Positions 11,439-29,928 are shown, counted from the first letter of the stretch. The stretch is DNA of 64,000 nt from an uncultured Alphaproteobacteria bacterium (GCA_903937405.1 CAIZZE010000039.1:3185-67184), one strand, 5' to 3'. Made by a program: numbers and translations. The notes: a model not told the origin generated them from the letters alone.

Positions 11439-11569
11439 TTTTAAAATTATTGATTGGCTAAAAACCAACTTACCGTTTTATTAGTTAATTTATTTTACGA
11501 ATACGCCATTTAAGTTGAGGATATCGAGTTCAGTTTCTCGAATCACTTTTGCCATAAATCAAAGCTGAT

Positions 11570-12145: not shown

Positions 12146-12208
12146 TTTTAAAAATCCGTAATTTTAATTTTTAATATTTTTTTCTTAAAAAAAATCATCG
12201 GTACTTGA

Positions 12209-13213: not shown

Positions 13214-13263
13214 TTTTTTATGTCTAAGAATTTTTGATTATTTACTTGTTGTAACACCGCATA

Positions 13264-13413: not shown

Positions 13414-13442
13414 ACTTCCACTCGATTTTGAAACATATTTAA

Positions 13443-14216: not shown

Positions 14217-14300
14217 GAAATATTTTGTAGAAAGTTTTGAAAGGCACGTGTTTTATTAGATAACTAACTTATCTCTTCAAAATTTTAAAAATCAAAAAAT

Positions 14301-15185
14301 ATGTCAGACTTAGTCCCTTTTGATCAACGCGATGGCTTTATATGGTATAACGGAAAATTCGTTGAATGGAAAGAAGCCAAAGTACACGTTTTAAATCACG
14401 GCCTTCACTATGCTTCATGCGTGTTTGAAGGTGAAAAAATTTATGACAAAAAAATCTTTAAATGTACCGAACATTCCACGCGTTTACATGCTTCAGCAGA
14501 AATGATGGGTTTTGAAATTCCTTATTCGATTGAAGAATTAGATAAAATCAAAAAAGAATCTGTAGTTAAACAAAATATCCAAGACGGTTACATGCGCGCA
14601 TTTGCTTGGCGTGGTTCAGAAAAAATGGCAATTTCGGCGCAACATAACAAAATTCACGTAGCAGTTGCCTGCTGGCCATGGCCGCCATATTATTCGGAAG
14701 AAGCGCGCAGAGCCGGATTAAAATTAAAATTCGCTAAATATAAACGCCCTTCTCCCGAAACCGCACCAGTTGCAGCAAAGGCCGCTGGACTTTACATGAT
14801 TTGCACAATTTCCAAACATGAAGCCGAGCGCGAAGGTTATAATGATGCTTTGATGTTGGATTATCGTGGTTTTTTAGCTGAAGCAACTGGCGCCAATTTA
14901 TTTTTGGTAATGAAAAACGGCGAGCTCCACACGCCGCTTCCTGATTGTTTTTTAAATGGAATTACTCGTTTAACTGTAATTGAACTGGCAAAAAAACGCG
15001 GAATTAAAGTTGTAGAACGCCACATCAAACCAGAAGAATTGGCTGATGCAAAAGACGTTTTCTTAACCGGAAGTGCTGCTGAAATCACCAGAATTGGCGC
15101 GATTGAAGATAAACATTCTTATCCTGAAGCCAGCCAAATTACATTAGATTTAATGGATGATTATCACCGCTTGGTGCGCAGCTAA
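14301..15185 (+). CDS. ilvE: Branched-chain amino acid aminotransferase (fold-type IV PLP enzyme)
   Basis: 294 aa. ..IWYNGKFVEWKEAKVHVLNHGLHYASCVFEGEK.., ..GANLFLV..G.L.TP....LNGITR... Confidence 0.87.
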   Translation: MSDLVPFDQRDGFIWYNGKFVEWKEAKVHVLNHGLHYASCVFEGEKIYDKKIFKCTEHSTRLHASAEMMGFEIPYSIEELDKIKKESVVKQNIQDGYMRAFAWRGSEKMAISAQHNKIHVAVACWPWPPYYSEEARRAGLKLKFAKYKRPSPETAPVAAKAAGLYMICTISKHEAEREGYNDALMLDYRGFLAEATGANLFLVMKNGELHTPLPDCFLNGITRLTVIELAKKRGIKVVERHIKPEELADAKDVFLTGSAAEITRIGAIEDKHSYPEASQITLDLMDDYHRLVRS

Positions 15186-15748
15186 TGAAAGAAAAAATTC
15201 AGAATCTTTTTACCACCATTTTTCTGGGATTTTTTTGCTTCACTGTTTTTGAGGTTGCGACCTCAAAAACAGCTGCTTCGCAAAGTAATTATTTCCGCGT
15301 AAAATCGCATCCGCAATTTGATAAAAAATTCGCCGGGAAAACTCATGTTCTTGATGGCGATTCAATAAAAGTCGGATCAAAAGAAGTTCGTCTTTATGGA
15401 CTCGATGCGCCGGAATTTCACCAAACTTGTTTTGATGAAAAAAATGAAGAATATCGCTGCGGTCAAGCTAGTTATGATTTCTTAACTAAACTTGCTGAAG
15501 GAAAAGAAGTAAATTGCATCTATTCCGGCAAAGACAAATATGACCGCTTTCTTTCAAAATGTTTTATCGATAAAATTTCGATTAATGAAGAAATTGTAAA
15601 AAATGGCATGGCGGTGATTTATAATTTTACGGAAAGTAGTGAAACAATGAATGCTTTGGAAGCGCAGGCGCAGAAGGAAAAATCAGGAATTTGGAAAGGC
15701 GCTTTTCAGCTTCCGAAAGATTATCGCAAATCGCATCCAAGAAATTAA
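15185..15748 (+). CDS. Thermonuclease (staphylococcal nuclease, SNase-like) with an N-terminal signal/anchor
   Basis: 187 aa. Hydrophobic N-terminus, then VLDGDSIKV...VRLYGLDAPE...YDRFL..C....I.N.E.V.NG.A. Its start overlaps the ilvE stop. Confidence 0.75.
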   Translation: MKEKIQNLFTTIFLGFFCFTVFEVATSKTAASQSNYFRVKSHPQFDKKFAGKTHVLDGDSIKVGSKEVRLYGLDAPEFHQTCFDEKNEEYRCGQASYDFLTKLAEGKEVNCIYSGKDKYDRFLSKCFIDKISINEEIVKNGMAVIYNFTESSETMNALEAQAQKEKSGIWKGAFQLPKDYRKSHPRN

Positions 15749-15779
15749 TATAATCATTCAAGTTGAAGACATCGAACTT

Positions 15780-15860
15780 TCGATGTCATGCTGAGCTTGT
15801 CGAAGCATGATTCAAAGAACTGACCTGAATCATGCTTCGACAAGCTCAGCATGACATCGA
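15780..15860. repeat. Family 3 palindromic element (perfect 35-bp inverted arms)
   Basis: TCGATGTCATGCTGAGCTTGTCGAAGCATGATTCA (15780-15814) and its exact reverse complement (15826-15860) are separated by 11 bp. It lies between the nuclease gene and argC. Confidence 0.85.
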
Positions 15861-15914
15861 GTTCGGCTTTTTGAATCATTTGACCATATAAACTAAATAG
15901 ATTCTAAAAACAAA

Positions 15915-16964
15915 ATGAACAAAATCAAAGCTGCAATCATCGGCGCATCAGGTTATACGGGTGCTGAACTTATCAGAATTTTACTGAACCATAAAAAAGT
16001 GGAAATCAGCGCTTTAATCGCCAATAGCAATGCTGGACAAAAAATCGAACAGCTTTATCCGCATTTGGTTCATTACAATTTGCCTGATTTAAAAAAAATT
16101 GAAGAAATCGATTTTACTAAAATTGATGTGGTTTTTGGCTGCTTGCCGCATACAACTTCGCAAGAAACTTTTAAAAAACTTTTATCTGATCCAAAAAACT
16201 CTCACCTAAAAATCATCGATCTTTCTGCTGATTTCAGGCTGGAAAATCCTGACGATTATCAAAAATGGTACGATCACGAGCATATCGCCAAAGACTTACA
16301 ACCACAAGCAGTTTACGGCTTGCCAGAAATTCATAGAAACAAAATCAAAAAATCAAATTTAATCGCTTGTCCAGGTTGTTATCCAACTTCAGCTTTACTG
16401 CCTTTAATTCCACTTTTGGAAAATAACTTAATTGAAAAACATGATATTATTATTGATTCTAAATCAGGAGCCACAGGCGCTGGCAGATCACTAAAACAAG
16501 GCAATTTATTTTGTGAAATTAATGAATCAGTAAAAGCCTATTCAGTTGGCAAACACAGACATATGGGCGAAATTGAACAAGAGCTGGGAAAGGCTGCCAA
16601 TGCTGTAATTGAAATTGATTTCACACCGCATTTATTGCCGATAAATAGAGGAATTATTTCGACAATTTACGCTAAAATTAATCCAAAATTTTCAATTGAA
16701 GATGTCAAAAATTGTTTACAGACTAAATATGAAGACGAACCTTTCGTAAAAGTAATTGAAGGCGATCCAAATATTAAAGATGTTGTTGGCACAAATTTTT
16801 GCATAATGTCAGTTAAAAAAGCCAGAACTACAAATAAAGTTATTATCGTTTCAGTAATTGATAATCTGTGCAAAGGTGCTTCTGGTCAGGCTGTACAAAA
16901 TATGAATATTCTTTTTGGGCTTGATGAAAAAGAAGGTTTAGAATTAGCTCCGTTATTTCCTTAA
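15915..16964 (+). CDS. argC: N-acetyl-gamma-glutamyl-phosphate reductase
   Basis: 349 aa. IIGASGYTGAELIRIL N-terminus and catalytic CPGCYPTS motif. Confidence 0.9.
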   Translation: MNKIKAAIIGASGYTGAELIRILLNHKKVEISALIANSNAGQKIEQLYPHLVHYNLPDLKKIEEIDFTKIDVVFGCLPHTTSQETFKKLLSDPKNSHLKIIDLSADFRLENPDDYQKWYDHEHIAKDLQPQAVYGLPEIHRNKIKKSNLIACPGCYPTSALLPLIPLLENNLIEKHDIIIDSKSGATGAGRSLKQGNLFCEINESVKAYSVGKHRHMGEIEQELGKAANAVIEIDFTPHLLPINRGIISTIYAKINPKFSIEDVKNCLQTKYEDEPFVKVIEGDPNIKDVVGTNFCIMSVKKARTTNKVIIVSVIDNLCKGASGQAVQNMNILFGLDEKEGLELAPLFP

Positions 16965-16968
16965 ATAA

Positions 16969-18267
16969 ATGCCTACTATTTTCTCACCAATCACTTCACC
17001 AGTTCGAGCAGGAATTTCAGTGATTCGAATATCTGGTCCACAAGTTGTTTCTTGTTTGCAGATTCTTGGATTTAAAGGAAATCCTGAGCATTCAAAGATT
17101 ACATTTCAAAAAATTCGTGATCCAAAAACGTCAGAAATTATTGACGAAGTTTTAGTTTCTTTTTTTCAATCACCAAAAAGTTTTACTGGCGAAGATGTTG
17201 CTGAAATTTCAATTCACGCCTCACCTTTTATCGCTAAAAAAATTTTTGAAATTTTATCCGACCAAAAAAATTGTCGCTTCGCTGAAGCTGGCGAATTTTC
17301 CAAACGCGCTTTTTTAAATGGGAAACTTGATCTTGTTCAAGCTGAAGCAATTCCTGATTTAATTGCCGCTGAAACTGCAGCTCAACACAAACAAGCGCTG
17401 CGCCAACTTGAAGGAAAATTGGGTGCAATTTATGAAGATTGGCGTTTTCGACTTATAGAAATTTCGGCGATGATTGAAGCGGCGATTGATTTTCCCGATG
17501 AAGATTTACCAAAAAATATTATCGATAAAGTTGAAAGTGACGTTGAAAAACTAAAAAACGAAATCGCTTCCCATTTGAATGATAATAAAGTTGGTCAAAA
17601 AATTAAAGATGGCTTGAACCTTGCAATTATTGGCGCGCCGAATGTTGGAAAATCTAGTTTAATAAATTTTTTAGCTCAAAGCGAAGTGGCGATTGTTTCA
17701 GAAATTGCCGGAACCACGCGCGATGTTGTTGAAACTCATTTATCAATTGCTGGCGTTGCGGTTAAAATTTCTGACACTGCTGGAATTCGCGAAACTGAAG
17801 ATAAAATTGAAGCGGAAGGAATTCGTCGCGCCTTAAAAAAAGCCAGTGAAGCAGATTTAAAAATTTTCTTAATCGATGCAAAAAATCCGGTTTTACGCGC
17901 TGATTTAATTGATCAAAACACGATTATTGTCGTGAATAAAATTGATCTAGAATCTTTTAATTTTGATGGCGCCGTTGGAATCTCTTTGACCAACAATGTA
18001 AATACGACGCAATTACTTAAAAAACTGGAAGAAAAAATCCTCGAATTAATCCCTAACCACAATTCTCCACTCATAACTCAAGAGAGATATCGCTCTGCTT
18101 TGCGAAATTCTGTTACAAATTTGGAAAGTTTTTCTCTTGAAAAAAACATCGAGCTTGCAGCCGAAGACTTAAGAATGACGGCACGCGAGATCGGAAAAAT
18201 CAACGGAAAAGTTGATATAGAAAATATATTAGATGTGATTTTTTCGCGCTTTTGTATTGGAAAATAA
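16969..18267 (+). CDS. mnmE: tRNA modification GTPase MnmE (TrmE)
   Basis: 432 aa. G1 motif GAPNVGKSSL, DTAGIRE, NKIDL, and the diagnostic C-terminal CIGK. Confidence 0.92.
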   Translation: MPTIFSPITSPVRAGISVIRISGPQVVSCLQILGFKGNPEHSKITFQKIRDPKTSEIIDEVLVSFFQSPKSFTGEDVAEISIHASPFIAKKIFEILSDQKNCRFAEAGEFSKRAFLNGKLDLVQAEAIPDLIAAETAAQHKQALRQLEGKLGAIYEDWRFRLIEISAMIEAAIDFPDEDLPKNIIDKVESDVEKLKNEIASHLNDNKVGQKIKDGLNLAIIGAPNVGKSSLINFLAQSEVAIVSEIAGTTRDVVETHLSIAGVAVKISDTAGIRETEDKIEAEGIRRALKKASEADLKIFLIDAKNPVLRADLIDQNTIIVVNKIDLESFNFDGAVGISLTNNVNTTQLLKKLEEKILELIPNHNSPLITQERYRSALRNSVTNLESFSLEKNIELAAEDLRMTAREIGKINGKVDIENILDVIFSRFCIGK

Positions 18268-18327
18268 GAGTCGCTATCTAAAATCAATTTCAGAAATCTT
18301 TATAATTAAAAATATTAGACTAGAGAA

Positions 18328-18810
18328 GTGACGCTAATAATAATGCCATCCATTGGCTCATTAATGCTCGATTTTGGTAATTTTCTCTCCCTTCACCCCG
18401 CTTTAATTAATGAGGTTGCGGGCCATGCTTTGGCGCACCAGCTTTACAGTCACATTCGTCGTGCTGGTCGTGGTCGAGTTAGCCGCAGACAAGCTAGAAA
18501 AATGTCGAATCGGAAAAGACGTTGGTTCGTAGATAATATCATCATGCATCATAAAAGATTGCATGACAGAAACCGTGAACTCTTAATTTCCAATGCCAGA
18601 ACCCGCGCCCTTGCTAGACGTAAGGCTCAAGAAAAACAACCACCAATGGGAGCATCACCAACTTTACAAAAAGATCGCGATCAACCAATCAAATGGCGCG
18701 ATACCGTGAGCTTAAAACAAAGAGGTGCTGATCTCAGAGGTCGTTCTGATGCTAGAAAATTAAGAGCTAGAAGTAGATGGTTAACGGTTGCAGCGAGCGT
18801 GGCAAGTTAA
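18328..18810 (+). CDS. Hypothetical arginine-rich, highly basic protein (coding status uncertain)
   Basis: 160-aa ORF with a GTG start in the track; ATG alternative at 18343. Local GC is well above the surroundings (I counted 34/60 in 18421-18480). The sequence is rich in R/K runs (RRAGRGRVSRRQARKMSNRKRRW, ARRKAQEK, RKLRARSRW). No recognisable family. Confidence 0.35.
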   Translation: MTLIIMPSIGSLMLDFGNFLSLHPALINEVAGHALAHQLYSHIRRAGRGRVSRRQARKMSNRKRRWFVDNIIMHHKRLHDRNRELLISNARTRALARRKAQEKQPPMGASPTLQKDRDQPIKWRDTVSLKQRGADLRGRSDARKLRARSRWLTVAASVAS

Positions 18811-18853
18811 AAAATAGATTTACAAGAGAAGTTTTAATAGAAAGCTTAAGCAA

Positions 18854-19318
18854 TTAATCGCGATGATAAGGATGGCCTTCAATAATGGTTTGGGCGCGAT
18901 AAAGTTGCTCGGCTAAAACTGAACGCACCATTAAATGAGGTAAAGTCATAAGTCCGAAAGAAACTTTTAAGGAAGATTTTTTTAGAAGTTCTGATGCTAA
19001 ACCATCAGCGCCGCCAATTACGAAAGTTAAATCAGAATCTCCAGCAACAGCAAAATCAGAAATTAATTTAGCAAAATCGCGACTGGCAAATTGTTTGCCT
19101 TTGTCATCAAGTAAAATCATTTTTGAACTTGGTCGCCAAGCTTTTAAAATTAAGGCTCCTTCTCCTTCTTTAATTTTATCAACCGACATGTTTTGGGAAT
19201 TTTTTAATTCCAATTCGCGCAGCTCAACTTTCCATTTCAACCTTTTTAAATAAGTTTCAAAAACAGCTTTATGCGGCGAGTTTTCGAACTTTCCGATGGA
19301 TAAAATTGAGACGCGCAT
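18854..19318 (-). CDS. rlmH: 23S rRNA (pseudouridine1915-N3)-methyltransferase RlmH
   Basis: 154 aa. SPOUT-family pattern ..FVIGGADGL.. with C-terminal ..GHPYHRD. Confidence 0.88.
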   Translation of the reverse strand: MRVSILSIGKFENSPHKAVFETYLKRLKWKVELRELELKNSQNMSVDKIKEGEGALILKAWRPSSKMILLDDKGKQFASRDFAKLISDFAVAGDSDLTFVIGGADGLASELLKKSSLKVSFGLMTLPHLMVRSVLAEQLYRAQTIIEGHPYHRD

Positions 19319-19369
19319 GATTAAAATTATTTTAAATTTAAACTAAGTTTGAATTTAGTTTTATTTGAA

Positions 19370-19403
19370 TTGCTGCGCATGGGATAAACCCGTGCATCCG
19401 CAA
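19370..19403. repeat. Small hairpin repeat, family 4 (TTGCTRCGCA..loop..GTGCATCCGCAA)
   Basis: TTGCTGCGCATGGGATAAACCCGTGCATCCGCAA. The reverse complement of 38118-38153 reads (G)TTGCTACGCACGAAGTAAATTCGTGCATCCGCAA(C), so the flanks are shared but the loop differs. Confidence 0.5.
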
Positions 19404-19472
19404 TAGATTTATTTATTTTAAGGATCTATAATGAAGCTAATTTAGGAATCTGAAATTTAATATTTTAAATAT

Positions 19473-19961
19473 ATGAGAATCGCAATTTATCCCGGAACTT
19501 TTGATCCGATCACTTTTGGTCATCTTGATATTATTAAAAGAGCAAGTGAGCTTTTTGATCATTTGATTATTGCCGCTGCAAAAGATAATTACAAAAATCC
19601 TCTTTTCACGCTGGATGAGAGAGTAAAATTGATTGAGGAAGAAACGCAATTTTTAAATAAGAATAATAATATTACGGTAGAAAAATTTGAAGGTTTGTTG
19701 GTGGAATATGCTAGCAAAAGAAATTCAAAAGTTATTATTCGTGGACTTCGCGCCGTTTCAGATTTTGAATATGAGTTTCAAATGTATGGCATGAATTCGA
19801 AGTTGAATCCCGAAATTCAGACTATTTTTTTACCAGCTTCGGAAACTAATCACTTTATTGCATCGAGATTGGTAAAAGAAGTTGCGAGATTAGGTGGAAA
19901 TATTTCAGGATTTGTTTCACCGAATGTGGAAAAGAAATTGATGGATAAATTAGGAAAATAA
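19473..19961 (+). CDS. coaD: Phosphopantetheine adenylyltransferase
   Basis: 162 aa. AIYPGTFDPITFGHLDII, RGLRAVSDFEYE. Confidence 0.92.
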   Translation: MRIAIYPGTFDPITFGHLDIIKRASELFDHLIIAAAKDNYKNPLFTLDERVKLIEEETQFLNKNNNITVEKFEGLLVEYASKRNSKVIIRGLRAVSDFEYEFQMYGMNSKLNPEIQTIFLPASETNHFIASRLVKEVARLGGNISGFVSPNVEKKLMDKLGK

Positions 19962-19979
19962 CAAACAGAAAATAAAATA

Positions 19980-20966
19980 ATGATTATCAAAGACGAAATT
20001 TGGATACTTGGAGACAACAGACCCGGAACGGTTTCACAAAGTATTGGATTAGCGGAGGAAATTGGGTTTGATTATAAAATTATCAATCTCACTTATAATT
20101 TCTTAGCGTTTTTACCCAATTTTTTATTTAGCCGCTCAATGATTCGATTAACCAAAGATGTCAAAAATAAGTTCCAGAATCTTGATTATCTTCCAAGCAT
20201 TATTATTTCAGCTGGCAGAAGATCTGCGCCAGTAGCGCTTTATTTAAAAAAATTATCCGATAATCGCACAAAAATTGTGCAAATCATGAATCCGAATTTG
20301 AATTTTAATAAATTTGATTTCGTGATTTTACCAAAACATGATGAAGCTGATGAATCTGCACATTCCAATTTAATCACCACAATTGGCGCACTTACCAAAA
20401 CTAACGAAAAATCAATTGCCAAAGAACGCGAAAGATTTGCCACTTGGTTTGCTGAAATTAAAAAACCAAAAATCGCCTTAATGCTTGGCGGCTCTTCTAA
20501 TAAAACCAAATTTACCACCGATTCTGGGATTGAACTAGCCCAAATTATTTCTGAAATTTGCAATAATATGGATGCAACTTTGTTGGTTTTAAACAGCAGA
20601 AGATCGGGCGATGAATTATCGCAAGCAGTAAAATCAAATCTGAATTGTGATTTTAAATTTTTCGACTGGAAAGAAACCAAAAATGAAAATCCTTATCTGG
20701 CAATTTTAGGATATGCTGATTTTTTTGTGATTACCGGCGATTCAGTTTCGATGATTTCAGAATGTTGTTCAACTGGCAAACCAGTTTATATTTTTGATGA
20801 ACAAGAAATTTCTTCCAAAAAACATCACAAGTTTCATCAGAATCTAATTGCCGAAAATTATGCCAAAAAACTTTCACGAAATATTTATGAGCTAGAAAAA
20901 AACTCTTCTTCCAAAAAACTTTTGGAAACAAAAAGAGTGGCAAATTTAATTAGAGCTAAGTTTTAG
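19980..20966 (+). CDS. ELM1 / DUF1022-family protein (predicted GT-B-like, COG3660)
   Basis: 328 aa. The N-terminus ILGDNRPGTVSQSIGLAEEIG resembles the G..nQ..GLAe.lg signature of alphaproteobacterial ELM1-family proteins. Length is typical. Confidence 0.6.
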   Translation: MIIKDEIWILGDNRPGTVSQSIGLAEEIGFDYKIINLTYNFLAFLPNFLFSRSMIRLTKDVKNKFQNLDYLPSIIISAGRRSAPVALYLKKLSDNRTKIVQIMNPNLNFNKFDFVILPKHDEADESAHSNLITTIGALTKTNEKSIAKERERFATWFAEIKKPKIALMLGGSSNKTKFTTDSGIELAQIISEICNNMDATLLVLNSRRSGDELSQAVKSNLNCDFKFFDWKETKNENPYLAILGYADFFVITGDSVSMISECCSTGKPVYIFDEQEISSKKHHKFHQNLIAENYAKKLSRNIYELEKNSSSKKLLETKRVANLIRAKF

Positions 20967-21043
20967 CTTGATTAAGTTCTTGCTGTTTTTAGCATCCCTT
21001 TGAATTTTATTTAAAATAATCCCCAAGCAAATAGTCTCTAGTC

Positions 21044-24000
21044 TTGATCAAGAATTGGTTTAAAAAAATCCAGCATCAGAAAATCTGCGCCAAGACGGCA
21101 ATTTTATTGCTATTTTTTGCCCTTTCTTCTTCCTGCACTGATCAAGGTTGTATTGATGCCAATGATTTTGGTGAATATGAAAGCCAAACAATTGAGGTTT
21201 CTGCCAACTCTCAACAAGAGAAATGTACCTATGATGGCTCGAAAGAACTAACTGATTCAACTCAAGGCAGCGGACTTAAATCATGTCTTGCTTCCGGTAG
21301 CACCACAGTTTATGATGAAAACGGCAATTCTAAAAGCAGCGCTAGCGGCTGCTATGGTTTTAATAATGATGCTGCTTATAAAAATTTATGTGTTACTACC
21401 TGCGTACAGAAATGTTTGTCCGACACTGGAGTTTCTGGAAGTCCTGAACCAGATTGGGTTTCAACCGACAAAAGATCAACTACTGCAAATAGCGGCGTTA
21501 CAATCAGACCTGGATCAGAAATCATTATACGCGCAGTTGGGACAATTCATTTAGGTGATATTATAAGTTATAATCCAATTCATGTTCAAGCTACCAACCC
21601 TATTCCTCATGCAAAAAAGGCAGCTTGGTCAAGTGGATCTACTGATGTATTTTTTGATGTTAGAAACGGACAAACTATTAATTTGAAGTTTAGCGGTTTA
21701 TGGTCTGACGGCACTTATAATGTAGGTTCTGGAGCCGGAACAATTAGCAATGCTACTTATACTGGCGCACGCAAAATTATTGCTTACGTAATTCCTCATC
21801 CAGAGGGTTATAATTTTGACACTTCTCAATCAAGCGAAAAATCCGGAACCAAAGGAGTTCCACTTTTACCTGATGCTCTAGCTTGGACTTGCGACTATAA
21901 TGGCGATTCTTTAACAGAATCAACTTGTCATAATACTTCTTACACCGCTTATCCAGCCGAATATACCAATGCTAATAACTCTTTAGCCAAAGATGTATTT
22001 CCTTTATCTTCTGAAGACGCAACTGCTATTCTTACATCTTATGGCGGTATTATTCGTTGGACCGGAGATAACTTAACTTCTTTCACCGACGACGATGTTT
22101 TCAAAAATTCTAATATAGCTTGCAATATCAACGGAGAATGCAACAACTTAGGTAACATTAAATCAACTTCAGGGAAAATTCTTGGAGATCTTTCCGCTAC
22201 CCCAGTCACAATTGAAAATCCTACTTCTGATACTGCTTTCCGAGTTTCATTCAAGTCTCTTCTAACTGACAATTCCTCCTGCAATGTTACATTAAAAGTT
22301 AAAGATAGTAACGATGTTGAATACTCAACCGCAGTTACAAATAGCGGTTGGAGCGACGATAAAGAAATTCCACTTGAAGTTGGAAAAACACTTTCGGTCG
22401 CACAACTTGATTCCCTTGGCAATTGTGGCAAAGCTATTGGGGTTAGATTTAATAAATACCACGAATTAAAAATGCAAAAATCTGGTTTTGTCAAATTTAC
22501 CATGCTTAACGGCAGCGGCAGCAGTACTTGCAAAATTAAGGCTCGCATCATGAATCCGAAAGGAACTTTTGATAATGACCCTTCTAAAAGTGACATCTAT
22601 GAATATGATGATTTCGCTACGGCAACATCCAAAGATCCCCTTGCCGATTTAACCGTATCTGCATCTGCAACAAACCCGATAAATTGGTCAGAGTTATCTT
22701 TTGTTAGAAAAGGACAAATAATCCGCTTCTCACCTAAGAGTTGGGATGGAACATGGACAACAAGTGTTGGACCCCGCCAGTGTGGTATTGGAATGGCAAT
22801 GATGATTGAACCAAGACCAGCATTACTTTGCAAAGGAACAGCCACTGATTATGTTTTAAATACAGCATGCACCCAAGAATATAATAGTAGCGGAACATTA
22901 ATCGGCTGCAAAGCATATGCCAGCGAATGTTCTGACAGCGCATCTACAGCTAATTATTGTCCACTTACTAATTGCCAATCAACCGTAACTTGTCCTGACG
23001 GCGTTTATCCTCTTTATCAGAAAGGAGCCTGTACATTAACAGCACCAACCATAGTTGCCTGCCCTTCAGCCTCTTATACTGACACCATCACTTCTACAAC
23101 CTGCACCGCTTGCTCTAAAAAGATGAAAGATAATGCTGAACGGGCAGGTAAAGTTGAAGTAAATAACATGATTCAATGTTACGACCTGGAAAATTACACC
23201 AGCAAAGTATCATCAATTCAGGAAACTGGATATACCGATGCAGAACTTGCAAATCCACTAATTACCAAAGGCCTTGCCAAAATTAGTGCGTTTAATGGCA
23301 GTTATGGAAATCTTGAAAACTTTGTTGATTCTGGAAACCGCGATTCAAACGGCAATAATAAAATCTTCCAACTCAAGCAACCTCTGACTTTTGGAACAGA
23401 AGGCAGGTTAAGATTTTTTATGCTTGATGGTTCTGATTTTAATGGTAATGATGGCGCCTATGATGCCTACGAAAACAACACTGAAAGTGGTAACTCTTAT
23501 ACCGGCTCCAATGGTTTTAAAATCAGTCTGTCCGGAATGCTTGATTTTGCTAACGGTCAATGGTTGCAAGCGCGTTTATGCTCAGAAGATAATGATAGTG
23601 GAATACTTTGTAAAAACTCCAATCCGATTTCTGTTAGCGATCAACCACAATTAATTGAGATCACTCCAACTGACGGCGCAACGCCAGCGGGAACTCCACC
23701 AAATATTTTAACAAGTTACGGATTTGATGGCTATGGCAATATCATACGCAATGATAATAATCTTTTAGTTGTTGACGGAACCACCAAGGATTGTACTGCA
23801 AATAATAATGGCGTTGCCTCAGTTGCTGGCGCTAACTTCTACTGTCATACTTACCAATATTTTTCTGCCTCTGCCCTAAAAGCAAAATCAAAGAGTGATC
23901 AAAGTTCTATTGAAAGCTCAATCCAAAAATTAAGACTAACTTTCAAGATTCTGGATCCTGAAGTTACCAATTGTAATATCTCTAGTGGAGTAGATGCTAC

Positions 24001-27000
24001 TGGAGTAGATGCTACTGGTAGCAAACTTGCAAATCCAGCTTATCGCCCAAATAGCTGCAAAGTTAATGCAGGTAGCTCTGCAAACGACGGTTATTATTCA
24101 GCATCTGATGGCACGTGCGAATCAAACTCTTCAAATACCGGCTCCACTTGTAGCGCCAATGACTTAGCTGGATCCTGCATAAAACAATATTACTGCGCCA
24201 ACAAATATGGTAATAATAGTGGCTCATATTTCGTTAACGTTAAAGTAAAAAGTGAAGTTAGCGGCACCATTTCCAGCATTATTGGCGGAGTGATTACTCC
24301 TGTAATTGAAGTTATGGATGGCCCAAAAACACGTAACTGCAGCACAACTGGCAACATTTTCTCAAACGATGGCGTAAGAACTAATAATTCTTTATATGTC
24401 GCAAGCATATCTAACACCGGTGCCACCTGCGTTGCAAGCGATGGCAATGAGTGCACTAAACAATATTATTGCAAAAAAGCGAGCCTTGGTCAGGCAGAAA
24501 GAGTTTATAAACTGGTCATTGCTGATGCCAAATTCAAGGCAATCGTAACCATGTGCTTCGTAGTGATGTTTAGCTTTTACGGCGTTGGCTATCTAATGGG
24601 AACCAGTGAATTAAATCACTCCGAGATTATGAATCGCATCATCAAGATCGGTATAATCTATCTCTTTATTGGCGAAACCGGTTGGGACTGGTTCAATAAT
24701 TTAGTAGTGAGGTTCTTTAAAAATGGTACCGACTACCTTGCCTTCATGATGGCATCATCCTTTGACAGCTCAAGTAATCACGCCGTCTCTGACGCAATCG
24801 CCAATAGTGATTATTATGATAAATCTGTTCTTTTCAGCAGCGTCGATAATGTTTTCAGCATGTTCTTCTCTCAAGCTGTTCAGAAAAAAGTTTCCGCTTT
24901 GTTATTTGCCAGCATCTTCGGTTGGGCCTACTTAATCATCATCTATCAAAGCTTCATGCTTTATGTTTACTCAGTTGCAAATGCCGTATTACTCTATTTA
25001 ACCGCGCAGGTATTTATCTCAATCCTCTTCACTTTAGGTCCAATATTCCTCATATTCACACTCTTCAATCAGACTAAGGAAATGTTTGATAATTGGCTCA
25101 AGCAATTGATCGCCTTCTCGCTACAACAAATTTTCTTACTCACCACTCTCGCCTTCTTCAACATGTTAATGTATGAAGTTATTAAACTTTCGCTTGGTTA
25201 CAAAATCTGCTGGGATGAAGTCTGGACCATTAACATCATCACCCGCATAACATTATTATCATTCTGGACAATTGCTTCGTTGCCAGCAAGAACCAATGCC
25301 CAATCTGATGTTGGAAACATTGGAAACCCAGAAGGAATTCCATCATTATTTTCAATTCTCTTTATTTGGGTAATTGCATCACTAATGAATAAATTCATTG
25401 GCTTTATGACAGATCTTGCCGCTTCAATTAGTGGCGGTTTATCAGCCAGTTCACTTGGCAAAGGCATTGCTGATGCAGTTAAAGGAGCTAGCGATATGGC
25501 TAAAAAAGGCCGTCAAGATTTATGGAACAAAACTGGTGGTCAAGCCATACAAAGAATGGATAAAGCTCTTTTTGATTCTGGAGCCATGGCTGATAAGGAA
25601 CGCGACGCCCGCAAAGCCAATAATGCTAAAGACTTCTCAAATAAAAGTGCCCTGGCAAAAGCTGGTAACAAAGCTAAAAAGGATTATATTGATAAAAATA
25701 AAGTCGCCCTTTCCGGCATGAGTAAAGAAGAGCAAAGAAAAACACTGAAAGGTGTTGAAGATGCAGCTCAAACCAAAGCAGGCAAAGATCTTGGCTTGAA
25801 TAATGAGGACATTGATAGATTGAAAAATGACAAAGGCTTCAAATTCGAAGGAGATACTCTTGGTGGAGCTGCTGCCAGCACTCTTAAACAAAGATTCATG
25901 GGCGGTAAAACTCTCAATGAGTCTTTAAGTGACAAATCATCAGATCTTAAACTTTCTGTTGCTCAAGCTTCAGGAAAAGGCTTGAGCACCGAAGATGCTA
26001 AAACACTCAAAGATAATATTGCCAAAGGCAATGTTGATGTCGAAAAAAATACTGCCGCAAAACTTTCAGATGCAGCTAAAACCGTCAGTGGCGCAACTGG
26101 AGCGGTAGGCGGCGCAATGAGTAGTGCAGCAAGTGGCGCGAAAGCTCTTGCAACAAGCTCAGAAGCAAGACAAAAAGCAGCAACAGCAGCGAAAGGAGCT
26201 ATAAAAGGAGGGTTATCAAGTGCCGGTGGCGCAGTTAGTAGCGCGGCCACAAGTACGGGCAATGCAATCTCAGGAGCAGCATCAAGCGCAGCAACGACAG
26301 TAAGTGGCGCTGCTTCTAGAGCTAAAGATTCAGTTGTTACTGGAGCTAAACTTGCCGTAAACGATCCAAAAGAAGCCGTAAAAATTGCCGCTGGAGCAGC
26401 AAAAACGGCTGTCACTGCGCCATTGAAAGCAGCTGCTGGAGTAGTATCAAGTGCAGCAAATGCAATGTCATCAGCCGCTGATACTGCTGAAAAAATGGCA
26501 GATTCAAAAGGTTATGAAGCAACTAAACAATTAGAAAAAGAAGGTGCTATTAATAGAATGGCCGCAGGAACAAATTTTGCTCGTCCAGATGAAGAGAAGA
26601 AGATGATTCAAGACAGAGTGAAACAAAATGAAAATGAGAAAAAATCTCAAATCAAAACACCTGATTTAAATACCATGACCGGCATCGCCAAAGAAGAAGC
26701 TTATAATAAAGAAATTGCCGCGATTGATCCAAATGCCAGACTCTCTGAACAAATAGGAGCAAGAATGACAGCTGCAGCCAAAAGATATAACCCAATGGGC
26801 AAACAAAGTGCAGAAACCAAAAAAGACTTGCTCAAAGCCGCCCAGGAACAAGGAAAAGAAAAACTGGTCACAGTTAAAGGTGAAAAAGGTAATTTAGAAA
26901 AAGGTCGCGCAACTGCGATGGAAGATTACGATAAAGCTACTGACGCAGTTGAAGATTATAAAAAACAACCTGAATTCACAGAAAGAGCTGAGTTAGTAAA

Positions 27001-28066
27001 AGAACTAACTGAAAAAGCTCAAAAAACTCATGAAGGTGTTACCGGTACTTTACCAAGAATCTTCAACTCTGCCGCCAGAAAAGAAGATAAGGAAGCTAGA
27101 AAAGCTCAATTCGAACTCAGACGAATGGGTGGTGCTGAAGATTCAAAACTTGCCAAACTTACCAAAAAACAAGATTTGGCCGGTGCTGCTGTCAGACAAA
27201 TCGATACCAAGTTGGCCAATGTTGAAGAGAAACTTAAGGCAACAGAAGAATTTGACACCGCAGCAACAACCGCTAGTGAAATTAGCGAAGAAGGTCAACA
27301 AAGAGCTGATTTACTGAACAATAAGGAGGAAGAGCTAAAAAAATCAGAAGAAACAACATCAGAAACCATGAATCCACTTAATACTTCTACAAATGATGGA
27401 TCAACGACAGGAACAGCAGCAGGAGGAGGAACAACAGGAGGAGGATCAACCACCAGCGGTTCTACAACTTCAGGAACTGGCACAGCAGCACCTAGAAATA
27501 AAAATATTTCCAACTTTATAGATAACCAAACTGGAGCTGTACAAACAATAGCCGATAAAAAAACTGCCGCCAAAGAAAAAGTAGCAATGGCAACGACAAC
27601 AAAAGAAGAAGCTGCCAAAGAACGCCCTCCTCTTATGAAAAGAATGGCTGATAAATTAACCTTAACCGGCAAATTAGATCCTAAAGAACAATCCTATCAA
27701 AATGCTGTCAAAGAAGAAAAGGAAAGCAAAAAAGAATTAGATAACGTGAAGAGACTTGGCAATGCAGTTGAAAAAGCTGATGCTCTTTCAAACCACGCCA
27801 GAGACTTAATGGCAAAAGAAGATGCAGCAAGAGACACAGACTCTAAAAACCAAACTCCATATAGCGGATCTTATCAACGCGCTGAAAAATTAGTTAAAGA
27901 ATATGACAACTTGAAATCGCCAGAAGACGCAGAAAAATTTGTGAAAGAGCAAGAGGAAAGATCAAAAGCAATTGCCAAAGCTAGTGAAGACTTAGACTCA
28001 CCTGAAGAATTCAAAAAATTCGCCGAAAGGTTTGATGGATATAATGGCAAAGATGAAGATAAATAG
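21044..28066 (+). CDS. Giant (2340 aa) envelope protein: lipoprotein-like signal, ~1150-aa Cys-rich ectodomain, VirB6/TrbL-like polytopic membrane domain, and ~890-aa Ala/Lys/Glu-rich low-complexity tail
   Basis: TTG start in the track. N-terminus ..AILLLFFALSSSC|TDQGC. I counted ~43 Cys in aa 1-1160. Hydrophobic segments span roughly aa 1166-1452 (nt ~24540-25400) and include FTLGPIFLIFTLFNQTKEMFDNWLKQLIAFSLQQIF. That matches the LGPiF..lLF..T...F..W...L pattern I associate with TrbL/VirB6 (PF04610). The tail is low complexity (AAKTVSGATGAVGGAMSSAASGAK..., KE/KA-rich, TTGGGSTTSGSTTSG). Confidence 0.6.
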   Translation: MIKNWFKKIQHQKICAKTAILLLFFALSSSCTDQGCIDANDFGEYESQTIEVSANSQQEKCTYDGSKELTDSTQGSGLKSCLASGSTTVYDENGNSKSSASGCYGFNNDAAYKNLCVTTCVQKCLSDTGVSGSPEPDWVSTDKRSTTANSGVTIRPGSEIIIRAVGTIHLGDIISYNPIHVQATNPIPHAKKAAWSSGSTDVFFDVRNGQTINLKFSGLWSDGTYNVGSGAGTISNATYTGARKIIAYVIPHPEGYNFDTSQSSEKSGTKGVPLLPDALAWTCDYNGDSLTESTCHNTSYTAYPAEYTNANNSLAKDVFPLSSEDATAILTSYGGIIRWTGDNLTSFTDDDVFKNSNIACNINGECNNLGNIKSTSGKILGDLSATPVTIENPTSDTAFRVSFKSLLTDNSSCNVTLKVKDSNDVEYSTAVTNSGWSDDKEIPLEVGKTLSVAQLDSLGNCGKAIGVRFNKYHELKMQKSGFVKFTMLNGSGSSTCKIKARIMNPKGTFDNDPSKSDIYEYDDFATATSKDPLADLTVSASATNPINWSELSFVRKGQIIRFSPKSWDGTWTTSVGPRQCGIGMAMMIEPRPALLCKGTATDYVLNTACTQEYNSSGTLIGCKAYASECSDSASTANYCPLTNCQSTVTCPDGVYPLYQKGACTLTAPTIVACPSASYTDTITSTTCTACSKKMKDNAERAGKVEVNNMIQCYDLENYTSKVSSIQETGYTDAELANPLITKGLAKISAFNGSYGNLENFVDSGNRDSNGNNKIFQLKQPLTFGTEGRLRFFMLDGSDFNGNDGAYDAYENNTESGNSYTGSNGFKISLSGMLDFANGQWLQARLCSEDNDSGILCKNSNPISVSDQPQLIEITPTDGATPAGTPPNILTSYGFDGYGNIIRNDNNLLVVDGTTKDCTANNNGVASVAGANFYCHTYQYFSASALKAKSKSDQSSIESSIQKLRLTFKILDPEVTNCNISSGVDATGVDATGSKLANPAYRPNSCKVNAGSSANDGYYSASDGTCESNSSNTGSTCSANDLAGSCIKQYYCANKYGNNSGSYFVNVKVKSEVSGTISSIIGGVITPVIEVMDGPKTRNCSTTGNIFSNDGVRTNNSLYVASISNTGATCVASDGNECTKQYYCKKASLGQAERVYKLVIADAKFKAIVTMCFVVMFSFYGVGYLMGTSELNHSEIMNRIIKIGIIYLFIGETGWDWFNNLVVRFFKNGTDYLAFMMASSFDSSSNHAVSDAIANSDYYDKSVLFSSVDNVFSMFFSQAVQKKVSALLFASIFGWAYLIIIYQSFMLYVYSVANAVLLYLTAQVFISILFTLGPIFLIFTLFNQTKEMFDNWLKQLIAFSLQQIFLLTTLAFFNMLMYEVIKLSLGYKICWDEVWTINIITRITLLSFWTIASLPARTNAQSDVGNIGNPEGIPSLFSILFIWVIASLMNKFIGFMTDLAASISGGLSASSLGKGIADAVKGASDMAKKGRQDLWNKTGGQAIQRMDKALFDSGAMADKERDARKANNAKDFSNKSALAKAGNKAKKDYIDKNKVALSGMSKEEQRKTLKGVEDAAQTKAGKDLGLNNEDIDRLKNDKGFKFEGDTLGGAAASTLKQRFMGGKTLNESLSDKSSDLKLSVAQASGKGLSTEDAKTLKDNIAKGNVDVEKNTAAKLSDAAKTVSGATGAVGGAMSSAASGAKALATSSEARQKAATAAKGAIKGGLSSAGGAVSSAATSTGNAISGAASSAATTVSGAASRAKDSVVTGAKLAVNDPKEAVKIAAGAAKTAVTAPLKAAAGVVSSAANAMSSAADTAEKMADSKGYEATKQLEKEGAINRMAAGTNFARPDEEKKMIQDRVKQNENEKKSQIKTPDLNTMTGIAKEEAYNKEIAAIDPNARLSEQIGARMTAAAKRYNPMGKQSAETKKDLLKAAQEQGKEKLVTVKGEKGNLEKGRATAMEDYDKATDAVEDYKKQPEFTERAELVKELTEKAQKTHEGVTGTLPRIFNSAARKEDKEARKAQFELRRMGGAEDSKLAKLTKKQDLAGAAVRQIDTKLANVEEKLKATEEFDTAATTASEISEEGQQRADLLNNKEEELKKSEETTSETMNPLNTSTNDGSTTGTAAGGGTTGGGSTTSGSTTSGTGTAAPRNKNISNFIDNQTGAVQTIADKKTAAKEKVAMATTTKEEAAKERPPLMKRMADKLTLTGKLDPKEQSYQNAVKEEKESKKELDNVKRLGNAVEKADALSNHARDLMAKEDAARDTDSKNQTPYSGSYQRAEKLVKEYDNLKSPEDAEKFVKEQEERSKAIAKASEDLDSPEEFKKFAERFDGYNGKDEDK

Positions 28067-28073
28067 AAAATTT

Positions 28074-28784
28074 ATGAAAAATAAAAATTCTAAAAATGCT
28101 TTCACCATTATCGAATTTTTAATCGCACTTTGCATTATTTTCATAGCTATTGCCGGCATTTTCTTTGTTAAAAAAATAATCAAAGAAAATAATGTAAAAT
28201 CCCTCATCATGCAGATCAAAAAATATGATGCTGCACTCAATAATTTTACTCAAAAATACCAAGCCCTTCCTGGAGATCTTAAAAGTACCGTCACTTACGG
28301 CATCACCGAATATAGCACCGATGGTAATAACGATAATATAATTACAGATAGAGTGCAGCAAATCCTCATGGCTAATGGTGAAATAACTAAGTTCTGGCTC
28401 CATTTATCAAAAACAAAAATGATCGATGAAAATTATGATGGCAAAGATGATAGCGATGCAAAAAACGGCAGCACTTTTCCACTTAGTAAAATCGGAGAAA
28501 ATTCCGGCATTGCGGTTTTTGGAAATGAAGGAAAAACTTTTTACCAAATTGGTTTTAAATTTGCTGATACTGATCGCCTTTACACAAATAATCGCAGCCT
28601 GAAAAGCGAAGAAGCTTTTTTGTTTGATCGAAAAATGGATGATGGAAATCCGCAAAAAGGCAGAATTATTGCAGTTGGTGGCGATATGTTAAATGTTCCA
28701 ACAAATGAAGAATGTGTGAAGCTTGGCGAATATAATCAAAGCACAATTAGTCCAGTTTGCCAATTGAGAATTGAAGCAAGATAG
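28074..28784 (+). CDS. Prepilin-type N-terminal cleavage/methylation-domain protein (type IV pilin / pseudopilin-like)
   Basis: I prefer ATG at 28074, 8 nt after the giant gene's stop; the track ORF starts at 28032. The leader MKNKNSKNA|FTIIEFLIALCIIFIAIAGIFFV is a class III signal with Ala at -1, Phe +1 and Glu +5. Later pilin-like motifs are ..YQALPGD.. and ..FDRKMDDGNPQKGRI.., plus a C-terminal Cys pair (C..C). Confidence 0.7.
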   Translation: MKNKNSKNAFTIIEFLIALCIIFIAIAGIFFVKKIIKENNVKSLIMQIKKYDAALNNFTQKYQALPGDLKSTVTYGITEYSTDGNNDNIITDRVQQILMANGEITKFWLHLSKTKMIDENYDGKDDSDAKNGSTFPLSKIGENSGIAVFGNEGKTFYQIGFKFADTDRLYTNNRSLKSEEAFLFDRKMDDGNPQKGRIIAVGGDMLNVPTNEECVKLGEYNQSTISPVCQLRIEAR

Positions 28785-28896: not shown

Positions 28897-29649
28897 ATGA
28901 ATAAAAAAAACTTCATGACACTCAACGAACATTTTGTCGAACTTCGCAAACGCGTAATTTTTTCTCTAATATTTTTCATCATCTCTTTTTCACTCTGCTA
29001 TTTTTTTTCCGAAAAAATTTACGAATTTTTATTGCAACCTTTCGCAGAAATTTCACAAAATAATCAGAATCGTAAATTGATCTACACCAGCCCCACTGAA
29101 GCGTTCATGACCTATCTAAAACTTTCTCTTTCATCAGCATTATTTTTTTCTTTCCCAATTTTTGCGGCAGAAATTTATCTTTTTTTATCTCCAGCTTTAT
29201 ACAAAAATGAGAAAAAAAATATTCTGTTAACATTTTTTTTCGCTCCACTTTTATTTTTATGCGGCGCGATTTTTGCCTATTATTTTATTTTGCCAGTCGC
29301 TTTTCAATTCTTCGCGAGCTTTGAAATTCAAGGCTCCGCAACATCCGCTTCACTTCCAATTCAACTTGAAACACGCATTAGTGAATATTTAAATTTTGTC
29401 ACAAATTTACTATTTGGATTTGGCATCGCATTTGAATTACCAATCTTGTTGCTTTTTTTAATTAAAGTTGGTTGTTTGTCCGCCAATGATTTAAGAAAGA
29501 AGAGAAGATACTGGATTGTGATCATTTTTTTAGTGGCCGCCGTCCTTACTCCCCCAGACATCTTGAGTCAGGTTAGTTTAGCAATTCCGATGATTTTATT
29601 ATTCGAAATTGCAATTCTTATTGGTAAAAATTTTAACAATAAAAAGTAA
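28897..29649 (+). CDS. tatC: Twin-arginine translocase subunit TatC
   Basis: 250 aa with six hydrophobic segments. HFVELRKRVI N-terminus and ..LTPPDILSQ.. motif. Confidence 0.9.
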   Translation: MNKKNFMTLNEHFVELRKRVIFSLIFFIISFSLCYFFSEKIYEFLLQPFAEISQNNQNRKLIYTSPTEAFMTYLKLSLSSALFFSFPIFAAEIYLFLSPALYKNEKKNILLTFFFAPLLFLCGAIFAYYFILPVAFQFFASFEIQGSATSASLPIQLETRISEYLNFVTNLLFGFGIAFELPILLLFLIKVGCLSANDLRKKRRYWIVIIFLVAAVLTPPDILSQVSLAIPMILLFEIAILIGKNFNNKK

Positions 29650-29656
29650 AAAAATT

Positions 29657-29860
29657 ATGGCCCCTATCAAAAAAGTAGTTGAGAAAAAAGCTCCAGCTAA
29701 AAAAACTGTTGTAAAAAAAGCTCCAGCTAAAAAAGTAGTTGCAAAAAAAACTGTAGCTAAAAAACCAGTTGCTAAAAAAGTAGTTGCGAAAAAAACCGTT
29801 GCTAAAAAACCAGTTGTTAAAAAAGCTCCTGCTAAAAAAACTGTAGCTAAGAAAAAGTAG
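29657..29860 (+). CDS. Lysine/alanine-rich histone H1-like repeat protein (putative nucleoid protein)
   Basis: I prefer ATG at 29657 (MAPIKKVVEKKAPAKKTVVKKAPAKKVVAKKTVAKKPVAKK...). The track start at 29609 would overlap tatC. The protein is essentially repeats of KKxPAKK / VAKK. Confidence 0.55.
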   Translation: MAPIKKVVEKKAPAKKTVVKKAPAKKVVAKKTVAKKPVAKKVVAKKTVAKKPVVKKAPAKKTVAKKK

Positions 29861-29896
29861 TTTTAGAAAGTAGAAAATCTAAAAAGTAAATGAAAA

Positions 29897-29928
29897 GGCG
29901 GGATCTCCAACGAGATCCCGCCTTTTTC
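29897..29928. terminator. Bidirectional rho-independent terminator
   Basis: GGCGGGATCTC-caac-GAGATCCCGCC, an 11-bp perfect GC-rich stem. It is followed by TTTTTC on the plus strand and by TTTTCATTT on the minus strand, and lies between convergent genes. Confidence 0.8.

Follow-up and report, generated by a model that had tools for sequence, protein, structure and literature searches.

Here we describe a 64,000-nucleotide stretch of DNA from an uncultured Alphaproteobacteria bacterium (GCA_903937405.1 CAIZZE010000039.1:3185-67184; hereafter the window), which encodes, at positions 21,044 to 28,784, a giant protein with a TrbL/VirB6 membrane core and, directly downstream, a small pilin-like protein. 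The best explanation of our data is that the giant gene belongs to the core genes of Candidatus Gamibacteraceae and is inherited vertically. With a probability of about 0.5, we read its product as a giant, lineage-typical extended VirB6 protein of the RvhB6 type, a channel subunit of the rvh type IV secretion system (T4SS) with an exposed contact ectodomain and a pilin-fold accessory partner. The protein is probably an attachment-and-secretion part of bacteria that live on the surface of algae.

The giant open reading frame (ORF; 21044..28066, + strand) has a TTG start on which independent gene callers agree, and runs for 2340 aa with zero internal stops. It is uninterrupted, at lengths of 1760-2450 aa, in nearly all of 70 related loci, and the identical protein is encoded on 16 contigs assembled independently from several separate samples. 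The gene is therefore not an assembly artefact, and the interruption in independent assemblies that an earlier note on this DNA had named as fatal to its call was looked for and not found. Together with purifying selection (a ratio of non-synonymous to synonymous substitution rates, dN/dS, of 0.03-0.53 by region, against three close relatives), this identity also rules out a pseudogene; cargo of a mobile element is ruled out by the fixed housekeeping synteny of the gene and by a GC content like that of its surroundings.

Translation, profile matches and composition bear out the four-part build that the earlier note had described. A signal peptide with a lipobox-like end (aa 1-31, 21044..21136) is followed by a Cys-rich ectodomain (aa 32-1165, 21137..24538, with about 41 Cys after Cys31), a polytopic TrbL/VirB6 membrane block (aa 1166-1470, 24539..25453) and a Cys-free tail, which divides into a moderately conserved proximal part (aa 1471-1680, 25454..26083) and a low-complexity distal part of variable length (aa 1681-2340 and the stop codon, 26084..28066), all on the + strand. 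The protein contains 45 Cys, of which 42 lie between aa 31 and 1143 and 0 in the last 950 residues. A Pfam scan of the giant protein found no domain besides PF04610 (TrbL/VirB6), and none within the ectodomain.

It is the membrane block that places the protein in the VirB6 family. PF04610 matches aa 1175-1380 with an E value of 2.2e-18 and 67.2 bits, against a gathering threshold of 25.9, and is carried by all 89 clusters of homologues, so the TrbL/VirB6 core that the earlier note had recognized, and made dependent on such a match, stands. A profile of the membrane block built from the family matches R388 TrwI/VirB6 (PDB 7o3v_F; E 6e-4) over the LGP(L/I)F...F..W core, which aligns with TrwI residues 154-213 and in which W1351 is invariant, and in a tblastn search with the block, plasmids of Pseudochrobactrum, Brucella and Sinorhizobium yielded VirB6 genes that are 22-25% identical over about 65% of its length (E 2e-4). 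The NCBIfam model PRK13852 gave 23.8 bits with a cut-off of 206, and a further, word-indexed search for homologues of the membrane block yielded just 9 fragments and no outgroup. Hydropathy predicts 7-8 hydrophobic segments at aa 1167-1453. The block is 62-96% identical across the family, and its dN/dS against the three close relatives is 0.03-0.05; in the relative P0064 it is 69% identical, compared with 65% for TatC and 63% for PolA. Anaplasma VirB6-4 proteins have the TrbL core near the N-terminus; an identity of this type was set aside, since about 1100 residues precede the core here.

The N-terminal signal reads MIKNWFKKIQHQKICAKTAILLLFFALSSS followed by C, that is, a positively charged n-region, a Leu/Phe-rich stretch and then [LF]SS-C. 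It has the lipoprotein-like look claimed for it, with Cys31 kept in 99% of 87 homologues and always right behind the hydrophobic stretch ([LF]SSC, SSSC and similar). Compared with the lipobox [LVI][ASTVI][GAS]C, the homologue alignment has Ser, Ala or Gly at -1, mostly Ser at -2, and S, F, L, Y or I at -3, the putative lipidation site being Cys31. Nearly all of the 42 Cys within aa 31-1143 are invariant, in agreement with a disulfide-rich ectodomain: about 35 are 92-100% conserved in the alignment, and Cys1099-1143 reach only about 31%, the second KQYYC module being absent from about two-thirds of the homologues. Both pairs of internal repeats that had been quoted are visible in the translation (GQTINLKFSGLWSDGTY with GQIIRFSPKSWDGTW, and TCSANDLAGSCIKQYYC with TCVASDGNECTKQYYC), and the GVDAT-GVDAT duplication corresponds to a 15-nt tandem repeat of 2.5 copies (23982..24018, + strand; 95% matches, score 67, Tandem Repeats Finder).

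An AF2 model of aa 32-1165 (pLDDT 79.5, pTM 0.67) consists mostly of beta strands that form several domains, and near aa 600-700 it has a linker dense in Cys. When all 1134 modelled residues were compared with PDB and BFVD, Foldseek gave 0 matches at E <= 1e-3, a multi-domain query being a poor probe; the weak matches were to beta-sandwich binding modules of carbohydrate-binding or adhesion type, namely CBM22, CBM35, CBM6, botulinum HA70, CUB, PA14 and phage distal tail proteins. In the syntenic orthologue P0202 (3387 aa, from the metagenome-assembled genome, or MAG, BJGH01), the ectodomain contains an inserted SUEL lectin domain of the galactose/rhamnose-binding kind (40.5 bits, gathering threshold 31.4), and this expanded ectodomain also has a match to a glycine-rich domain. 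Across the family, the ectodomain is conserved at about 40-50% identity; its dN/dS against the three close relatives is 0.32-0.46, and lineage-specific insertions and duplications are frequent in these giants; in the closest relatives (L005-L007) it is 77% identical, compared with 92-100% for TatC, CoaD, GST and PolA. The best reading of the ectodomain is that of an exposed, fast-evolving binding module.

The tail of about 870 aa is Ala/Lys/Gly/Ser-rich and then Ala/Lys/Glu-rich, and is of low complexity. Its proximal part has few gaps, conservation of 0.32-0.58, a dN/dS of 0.20-0.27 and the motifs LFDSG..AD and GK.LGL, and can be aligned even to P0301, a relative only 27% identical. The distal part is Ala/Lys/Glu/Thr-rich with many gaps, conservation of 0.10-0.37 and a dN/dS of 0.42-0.53. 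Among 205 giant relatives, the median is 38 Cys (3.25 per 100 aa) ahead of the membrane block and 0 (0.01 per 100 aa) behind it, and no Cys occurs in 194 of the tails. From this asymmetry, the N-terminal signal and the invariant Cys31 in its lipobox-like context, we infer that the N-domain lies on the oxidising side of the membrane and the tail in the cytoplasm. This orientation matches the N-out, C-in topology reported for Agrobacterium tumefaciens VirB6 (as summarised in PMC2653234).

The giant protein belongs to a large family. A homologue search with aa 1-1500 gave 89 clusters, almost all with 97-100% query coverage and 41-88% identity, and a scan of one genome per species gave 70 loci. 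These come without exception from MAGs of uncultured aquatic bacteria whose labels read Rickettsiales or Alphaproteobacteria, apart from a few whose submitter labels are plainly wrong. An exhaustive hidden Markov model search with the membrane-block profile found 2460 cluster representatives at E <= 1e-3, 395 of them at E <= 1e-30; the best 150 of the 2460 are almost all 1500-3387 aa long, with the TrbL block at about aa 1000-1800. More than 200 giant relatives were collected, and Pfam covers nothing of this family of more than 200 clusters beyond the TrbL core. P0301 aligns in the N-terminal 'C..GCID..D.G' start, in the C-terminal half of the ectodomain, and in the membrane block with the proximal tail, which argues that the whole giant architecture is ancient.

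Within this family the gene occupies a fixed place. The order MnmE, orf160, RlmH (- strand), CoaD, Elm1, giant gene, pilin-like gene where present, TatC, orf180 (-), APH (-), GST (-), PolA is kept from 100% down to about 35% identity of the giant protein, and TatC lies downstream, next to the giant or the pilin-like gene, in most relatives. Two giants stand in tandem in L063, L068, L069 and L071, and in L080 (contig BJGH01000001.1) giants at 2836-7779 and 10001-20164 flank CoaD-Elm1, the larger being the SUEL-bearing P0202. More remote giants lie between ThiC and LepA, or between MetK and other housekeeping genes. Two of the loci connect the family with a named lineage: L058 is MAG UBA2645 and L037 is Alphaproteobacteria bacterium RIFCSPLOWO2_01_FULL_40_26, both with the synteny of the window and with neighbour proteins 61-88% identical. 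In Schön et al. 2022 (PMC9352585), both genomes are named as members of Candidatus Gamibacteraceae, the sister group of Deianiraeaceae. [quoted passage not shown]

The pilin-like gene (28074..28784, + strand, 236 aa) begins with an ATG at 28074, 7 nt past the stop codon of the giant gene (28064-28066), and its product starts with MKNKNSKNA/FTIIE (the slash precedes position +1), followed by a hydrophobic helix and a globular head. In an AF2 model (pLDDT 93.9, pTM 0.86), an N-terminal helix of about 50 residues (11-61) is followed by a beta sheet, and the sole credible Foldseek match is Clostridioides difficile PilA1 (4tsm_B; probability 0.99, E 0.02). The C-terminal Cys residues C213 and C228 are invariant or nearly so. 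As modelled, the protein thus has the build of a pilin, a long helix on an antiparallel beta sheet with a predicted C-terminal disulfide. A pilin-like profile run against PDB chains gave no pilin match, only a chance match to ESAT-6 (E 0.14), and NCBIfam gave weak N-terminal matches of the ComG/GspG type, far under their cut-offs.

The earlier note had called this gene prepilin-type; its product is pilin-like by the modelled fold, and its prepilin signal is atypical. A class III signal has Gly at -1, Phe at +1, Glu at +5 and a PF07963 match; the window protein has Ala at -1 and scores 16.3 bits with PF07963, below the gathering threshold of 21.2. Wherever an orthologue retains the FT(I/L)(I/V)E motif, position -1 is Ala and not Gly, and about 9 of 25 orthologues have lost both the motif and Glu5 and keep just the N-terminal hydrophobic helix. 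A canonical prepilin (KR/GFSLVE) is present in a related genome, which argues that Ala at -1 is a derived feature of the pilin-like protein. Remote full-length homologues (P0158-P0162, 24-41% identity) pass PF07963, and P0159 stands alone in an unrelated context; the 58 homologue clusters at >=41% identity appear confined to the lineage, and several share contigs with giants. By its model, the product is a pilin-fold, membrane-anchored protein that is perhaps no longer a filament subunit in all lineages.

Comparison of relatives showed that the pilin-like gene is conserved beside the giant gene: among 47 informative giant genes, 23 have it adjacent, 9 have TatC directly next and 15 have other genes next. 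Orthologues of 45-97% identity follow the giant gene directly in 22 loci. In L016 and the partial loci L066 and L070, from which the usual upstream genes are gone, an orthologue lies directly before the giant gene on the opposite strand, and in the four loci with tandem giants (L063, L068, L069 and L071) the pilin-like gene stays with the second copy. Because the adjacency is found both in the deepest-branching clade, whose giant N-domains are 22-28% identical to that of the window, and throughout the crown of a rough neighbour-joining tree, these data suggest an ancestral linkage of the two genes with repeated loss or relocation. The fortuitous adjacency that the earlier note had allowed for finds no support in an arrangement present in deep and crown clades alike and surviving rearrangement, and comparative evidence of this kind argues that the adjacency is not fortuitous.

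Some further observations concern the pilin-like gene and its surroundings. Two independent contigs (L003, at position 12361, and an ERZ1426753 contig) match the window identically as far as 28154 and then diverge fully; the break lies inside the pilin-like gene, just past the N-terminal helix, and leaves a truncated ORF of 48 aa. It reflects either a change at strain level, by rearrangement or by exchange of the pilin head domain, or else a chimeric assembly. Farther from the giant genes of remote relatives, other genes of type IV pilus or type II secretion type occur: L004 has a canonical prepilin with a Laminin_G_3 domain (26564-26846), L083 a pilin with KA/FSLIE, again with Ala at -1 (4937-5668), and L081 a secretin gene (14694-16376). 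A pilin-like gene 4.3 kb upstream of the giant in L083 was rejected as an orthologue, resembling the window protein over its first 92 residues only, and the genes directly after the remote giants of L082 and L083 encode a secreted protein and a beta-barrel-like protein, and no pilins.

The rvh machinery itself is encoded in the family. Four Gamibacteraceae genomes (bin671, bin673, BfRick and UBA2645) hold VirB3, two VirB4, VirB8, two VirB9, VirB10, VirB11 and VirD4 (PMC9352585, Supplementary Data 4), together with four VirB6-family genes each and, in the same family, PilB, PilC, PilD, PilT and a secretin (PMC9352585). The search for rvh and pilD genes that the earlier note had proposed thus gives a positive answer at the level of the family, in the four tabulated genomes. 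Through L037, L058 and the published table, the bearer of the giant gene can likewise be placed at family level among Rickettsiales with an rvh T4SS. The description of the giant as solitary therefore holds locally, there being no T4SS gene elsewhere in the 64-kb window, but not genome-wide, where a full rvh set with four VirB6 genes is the family pattern.

One T4SS component does occur nearby in relatives. In five loci, a TrbC/VirB2 pilin gene (PF04956, 44.4 bits with a threshold of 27.9) is encoded downstream of the giant, at a distance of 3.5-7 kb (L022, 19294-19767; L035, 22617-23114, - strand; L044, 20565-21005; L046, 20070-20507; L065, 19225-19635). The VirB2 copy of L035 has a Cys-rich N-terminal extension with 'VGCIDDAG', which recalls the invariant N-terminal 'GCIDADDFG' of the giant. 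Apart from these VirB2 genes, no T4SS gene was found within 10 kb of the giant gene in the 70 genome loci or in 5 remote loci. Such scatter has precedent in the Rickettsiales, whose rvh genes typically lie dispersed in islets; in Orientia, rvhB6e stands apart from the array (PMC2653234).

Our data are consistent with a model in which the N-terminal signal exports an array of 1130 residues, made of disulfide-stapled beta sandwiches, to the periplasmic or outer side, the TrbL/VirB6 helices lie in the inner membrane, and the Cys-free tail is left in the cytoplasm. The TrbL block would take the VirB6 position at the base of the rvh channel, the rvh genes being encoded elsewhere in the genome. The rvh system operates without VirB5, and its RvhB6 proteins carry sizeable extensions at both the N- and the C-terminus (PMC8035066; PMC2653234); because no VirB5 stalk or tip protein is available, the ectodomain would project along the channel axis. 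It could there act as a diversifying, ligand- or glycan-binding contact module towards a eukaryotic (algal) surface, and the conserved proximal tail could provide a cytoplasmic docking surface. The pilin-fold protein, with its N-terminal helix in the same membrane, would be an accessory partner of the ectodomain or of the membrane block, and need not build filaments. The adhesin/channel hybrid that the earlier note had put forward is plausible in this form and underlies our best explanation, as a part of the rvh system rather than as a separate device.

Several points weigh against this model. The giant gene never adjoins rvhB3, rvhB4, rvhB8-rvhB11 or rvhD4 in the window, the 70 genome loci or five remote loci, so that physical membership in the T4SS is something we only infer, and the giant need not be one of the four tabulated VirB6 genes or the counterpart of any named Rickettsia paralogue. 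An ectodomain anchored in the inner membrane would need a route through the outer membrane to reach a host. The helix count is 7 or 8, so the side on which the tail lies depends on the Cys asymmetry. The description of the ectodomain as lectin-like depends on the SUEL domain inserted in one orthologue and on weak Foldseek matches, none of them significant. Lastly, around half of the species have no pilin-like gene near the giant, and where the gene is found its prepilin motif is atypical or lost.

The giant could be a stand-alone, VirB6-derived envelope device that works with its pilin-fold partner independently of rvh, perhaps as an adhesin anchored in the inner membrane and spanning the periplasm, as a tether, or as a separate conduit; we consider this rather unlikely. 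It would account for a gene that is always found in a housekeeping neighbourhood (MnmE-RlmH-CoaD-Elm1-X-TatC-...-PolA, or ThiC/LepA and MetK in remote members) and never beside rvh machinery, for a membrane block as conserved as PolA or TatC (P0064) when VirB6 is otherwise the most variable rvh component (PMC2653234), and for a partner related to type IV pilins rather than to T4SS pilins. However, a complete rvh set is present in every tabulated Gamibacteraceae genome (PMC9352585), so independence is not needed for the gene to be retained; separation says little where rvh genes are normally scattered in islets (PMC2653234), no ATPase or outer-membrane component is linked to the giant gene, and VirB2 genes lie within 3.5-7 kb of it in five loci. 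The stand-alone system suggested by the earlier note is therefore not what the family genomes favour. Alternatively, the giant could be an ordinary dispersed RvhB6 paralogue with the usual extensions, one of four VirB6-family genes, beside which the pilin-like gene is a chance neighbour. Four such genes per Gamibacteraceae genome are on record (PMC9352585), as are Rickettsia RvhB6a-e of 668-1154 aa with divergent flanks and an rvhB6e that is not arrayed in Orientia (PMC2653234); moreover, the pilin-like gene is absent between giant and tatC in 9 loci, 15 have other genes next, and it is divergently oriented in three, so co-transcription is not universal. We regard this explanation as unlikely all the same, given that the adjacency spans the deepest clade and the crown, outlasts the loss of flanking synteny (L016, L066, L070), follows the second copy in tandem duplications and leaves a gap of 7 nt, that the pilin-like clusters appear lineage-confined, several of them on contigs of giants, and that a protein of 2340 aa, with a 1130-aa ectodomain and about 20 potential disulfides, is twice the size of any Rickettsia RvhB6.

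A purely periplasmic scaffold, whose ectodomain stays in the periplasm and binds peptidoglycan or envelope glycans such as a rhamnose-type polymer encoded in the window, seems improbable to us. The alpha-helical membrane anchor does fix the giant protein to the inner membrane, the periplasm would suffice for its wealth of disulfides, the SUEL lectin of P0202 binds rhamnose or galactose, and the window holds RgpF and dTDP-rhamnose genes. The evolutionary record of the ectodomain, with a dN/dS of 0.32-0.46, 77% identity beside neighbours at 92-100%, and many insertions and duplications specific to single lineages, is more in keeping with an exposed surface that diversifies than with a housekeeping scaffold. 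A bolder version of the channel-subunit model is that VirB6, in a system without VirB5, itself grew a stalk and a tip: a pentamer would push the disulfide-stapled, lectin-like ectodomain through the rvh outer-membrane core, and the pilin-fold neighbour, recruited from type IV pili and in some lineages no longer bound to prepilin processing, would serve as an adaptor or short pseudopilus, making a hybrid T4SS/type IV pilus organelle for attachment and injection in the algal epibiosis of genome-reduced Rickettsiales. We hold this to be doubtful and put it forward as speculation; if true, it would give a direct view of the role that RvhB6 extensions play in pathogenic Rickettsiales.

Around the two genes, a promoter-like site upstream of the giant gene (20989..21017, + strand; TTAGCA-17-TAAAAT, 9/12 consensus matches) is weak evidence for a start of transcription, such sites being common in AT-rich DNA here. 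No terminator-like site lies between the giant gene, the pilin-like gene and tatC (28897..29649, + strand; PF00902, 230.8 bits), and a strong bidirectional intrinsic terminator (29892..29927; a 16-bp stem with 8 G-C pairs and T-runs on both strands) ends this co-oriented block, whose three genes may be co-transcribed. Neither tatA nor tatB adjoins tatC, and a small Lys-rich ORF after it (29609-29860, + strand) has a histone H1-like HC2 match of 44.6 bits (threshold 40).

The remainder of the 64-kb window holds no other T4SS or type IV pilus machinery gene, as had been stated of the T4SS genes, and encodes housekeeping and envelope functions. Two surface-polysaccharide clusters (3715-13213 and 52464-59853) contain RgpF rhamnan-type transferases, dTDP-rhamnose synthesis genes and GT2, GT4 and GT61 glycosyltransferases, which may matter if the ectodomain binds rhamnose-type glycans. 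A two-gene PD-T4-4 anti-phage defence system (39790-41849, + strand) comprises gene A (467 aa; PD-T4-4_A, 519.8 bits, E 1.9e-156) and gene B (219 aa; PD-T4-4_B, 43.8 bits), and just after the pair lies a gene with a DEDDh/BrxH-like exonuclease domain (41860-42471). Near giant genes in relatives, L060 encodes a protein of 1638 aa that, as judged by eye, abounds in ankyrin-like repeats (2460-7376, - strand), and L010 (586-5589), L030 (566-4690) and L039 (2469-6041) encode a family of 1190-1667 aa with an M23-peptidase-like start; all of these are possible effectors or surface proteins.

No published description of the giant protein or of its pilin linkage was found in full-text searches of the literature on Gamibacteraceae, RvhB6 and VirB6 in Rickettsiales MAGs. 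The multiple VirB6 copies with huge extensions, in an rvh system that works without VirB5, have been an open question since 2009, the function of the extensions being unknown in those reports (PMC2653234, PMC8035066). The giant family offers a clean handle on this question: a conserved protein that can be aligned from end to end, with an inside/outside signature, a modelled ectodomain, a lectin-bearing orthologue and a recurrent pilin-fold partner, in extracellular Rickettsiales that have already been seen on cryptophyte algae. Should the rvh system touch its host through the ectodomain, this would account for attachment in those lineages that stand nearest the origin of obligate host association, and would yield testable predictions for the RvhB6 extensions of pathogens.

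Among known systems, canonical VirB6/TrwI/TrbL proteins (R388 TrwI, PDB 7o3v; A. tumefaciens VirB6, 295 aa) share with the giant PF04610 and the LGP(I/L)F...F..W core, but are about 300-350 aa long and are encoded in virB/trb operons with a separate VirB5 tip protein; in the giant, the core is 13% of the protein, unlinked from any such operon, in a system without VirB5. Its neighbour resembles type IV pilins and type II secretion pseudopilins (PF07963) in its short basic leader, FT(I/L)(I/V)E motif, helix of about 50 residues, beta-sheet head and C-terminal Cys pair. It differs from them in the Ala at -1, in the loss of the motif and Glu5 in several orthologues, in having no sequence match to solved pilins, and in being encoded beside a VirB6-like gene rather than pilus genes. 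With tip adhesins of the VirB5/TraC type and the CagL/CagY-type parts of Helicobacter pylori, there is a functional analogy only, that of a T4SS-mounted module contacting a target cell; no sequence or fold similarity was detected, and the putative contact module is here fused to VirB6 itself.

The closest counterparts are the RvhB6 proteins of the Rickettsiales (RvhB6a-e of Rickettsia, VirB6-1 to -4 of Anaplasmataceae). They belong to the same bacterial order, are present in multiple copies prone to tandem duplication, and carry large extensions, which in the giant amount to 1165 aa on the N-terminal and about 870 aa on the C-terminal side of the core; one of them, rvhB6e of Orientia, is also unlinked from its array (PMC2653234). 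Unlike the Rickettsia proteins of 668-1154 aa, the giant is twice that size, and it has a lipobox-like start and a 1130-aa ectodomain in which about 20 disulfides could form, conserved over its whole length in at least 70 species. Its membrane block is conserved at the level of a housekeeping protein, it occupies a fixed CoaD-Elm1-X-(pilin)-TatC locus rather than following rvhB3-rvhB4, and it has a pilin-fold gene as a recurrent neighbour. Extended VirB6 paralogues in the Rickettsiales are thus known; what is new is the giant disulfide-rich ectodomain together with a fixed housekeeping locus, near-housekeeping conservation of the core, and a pilin-fold partner.

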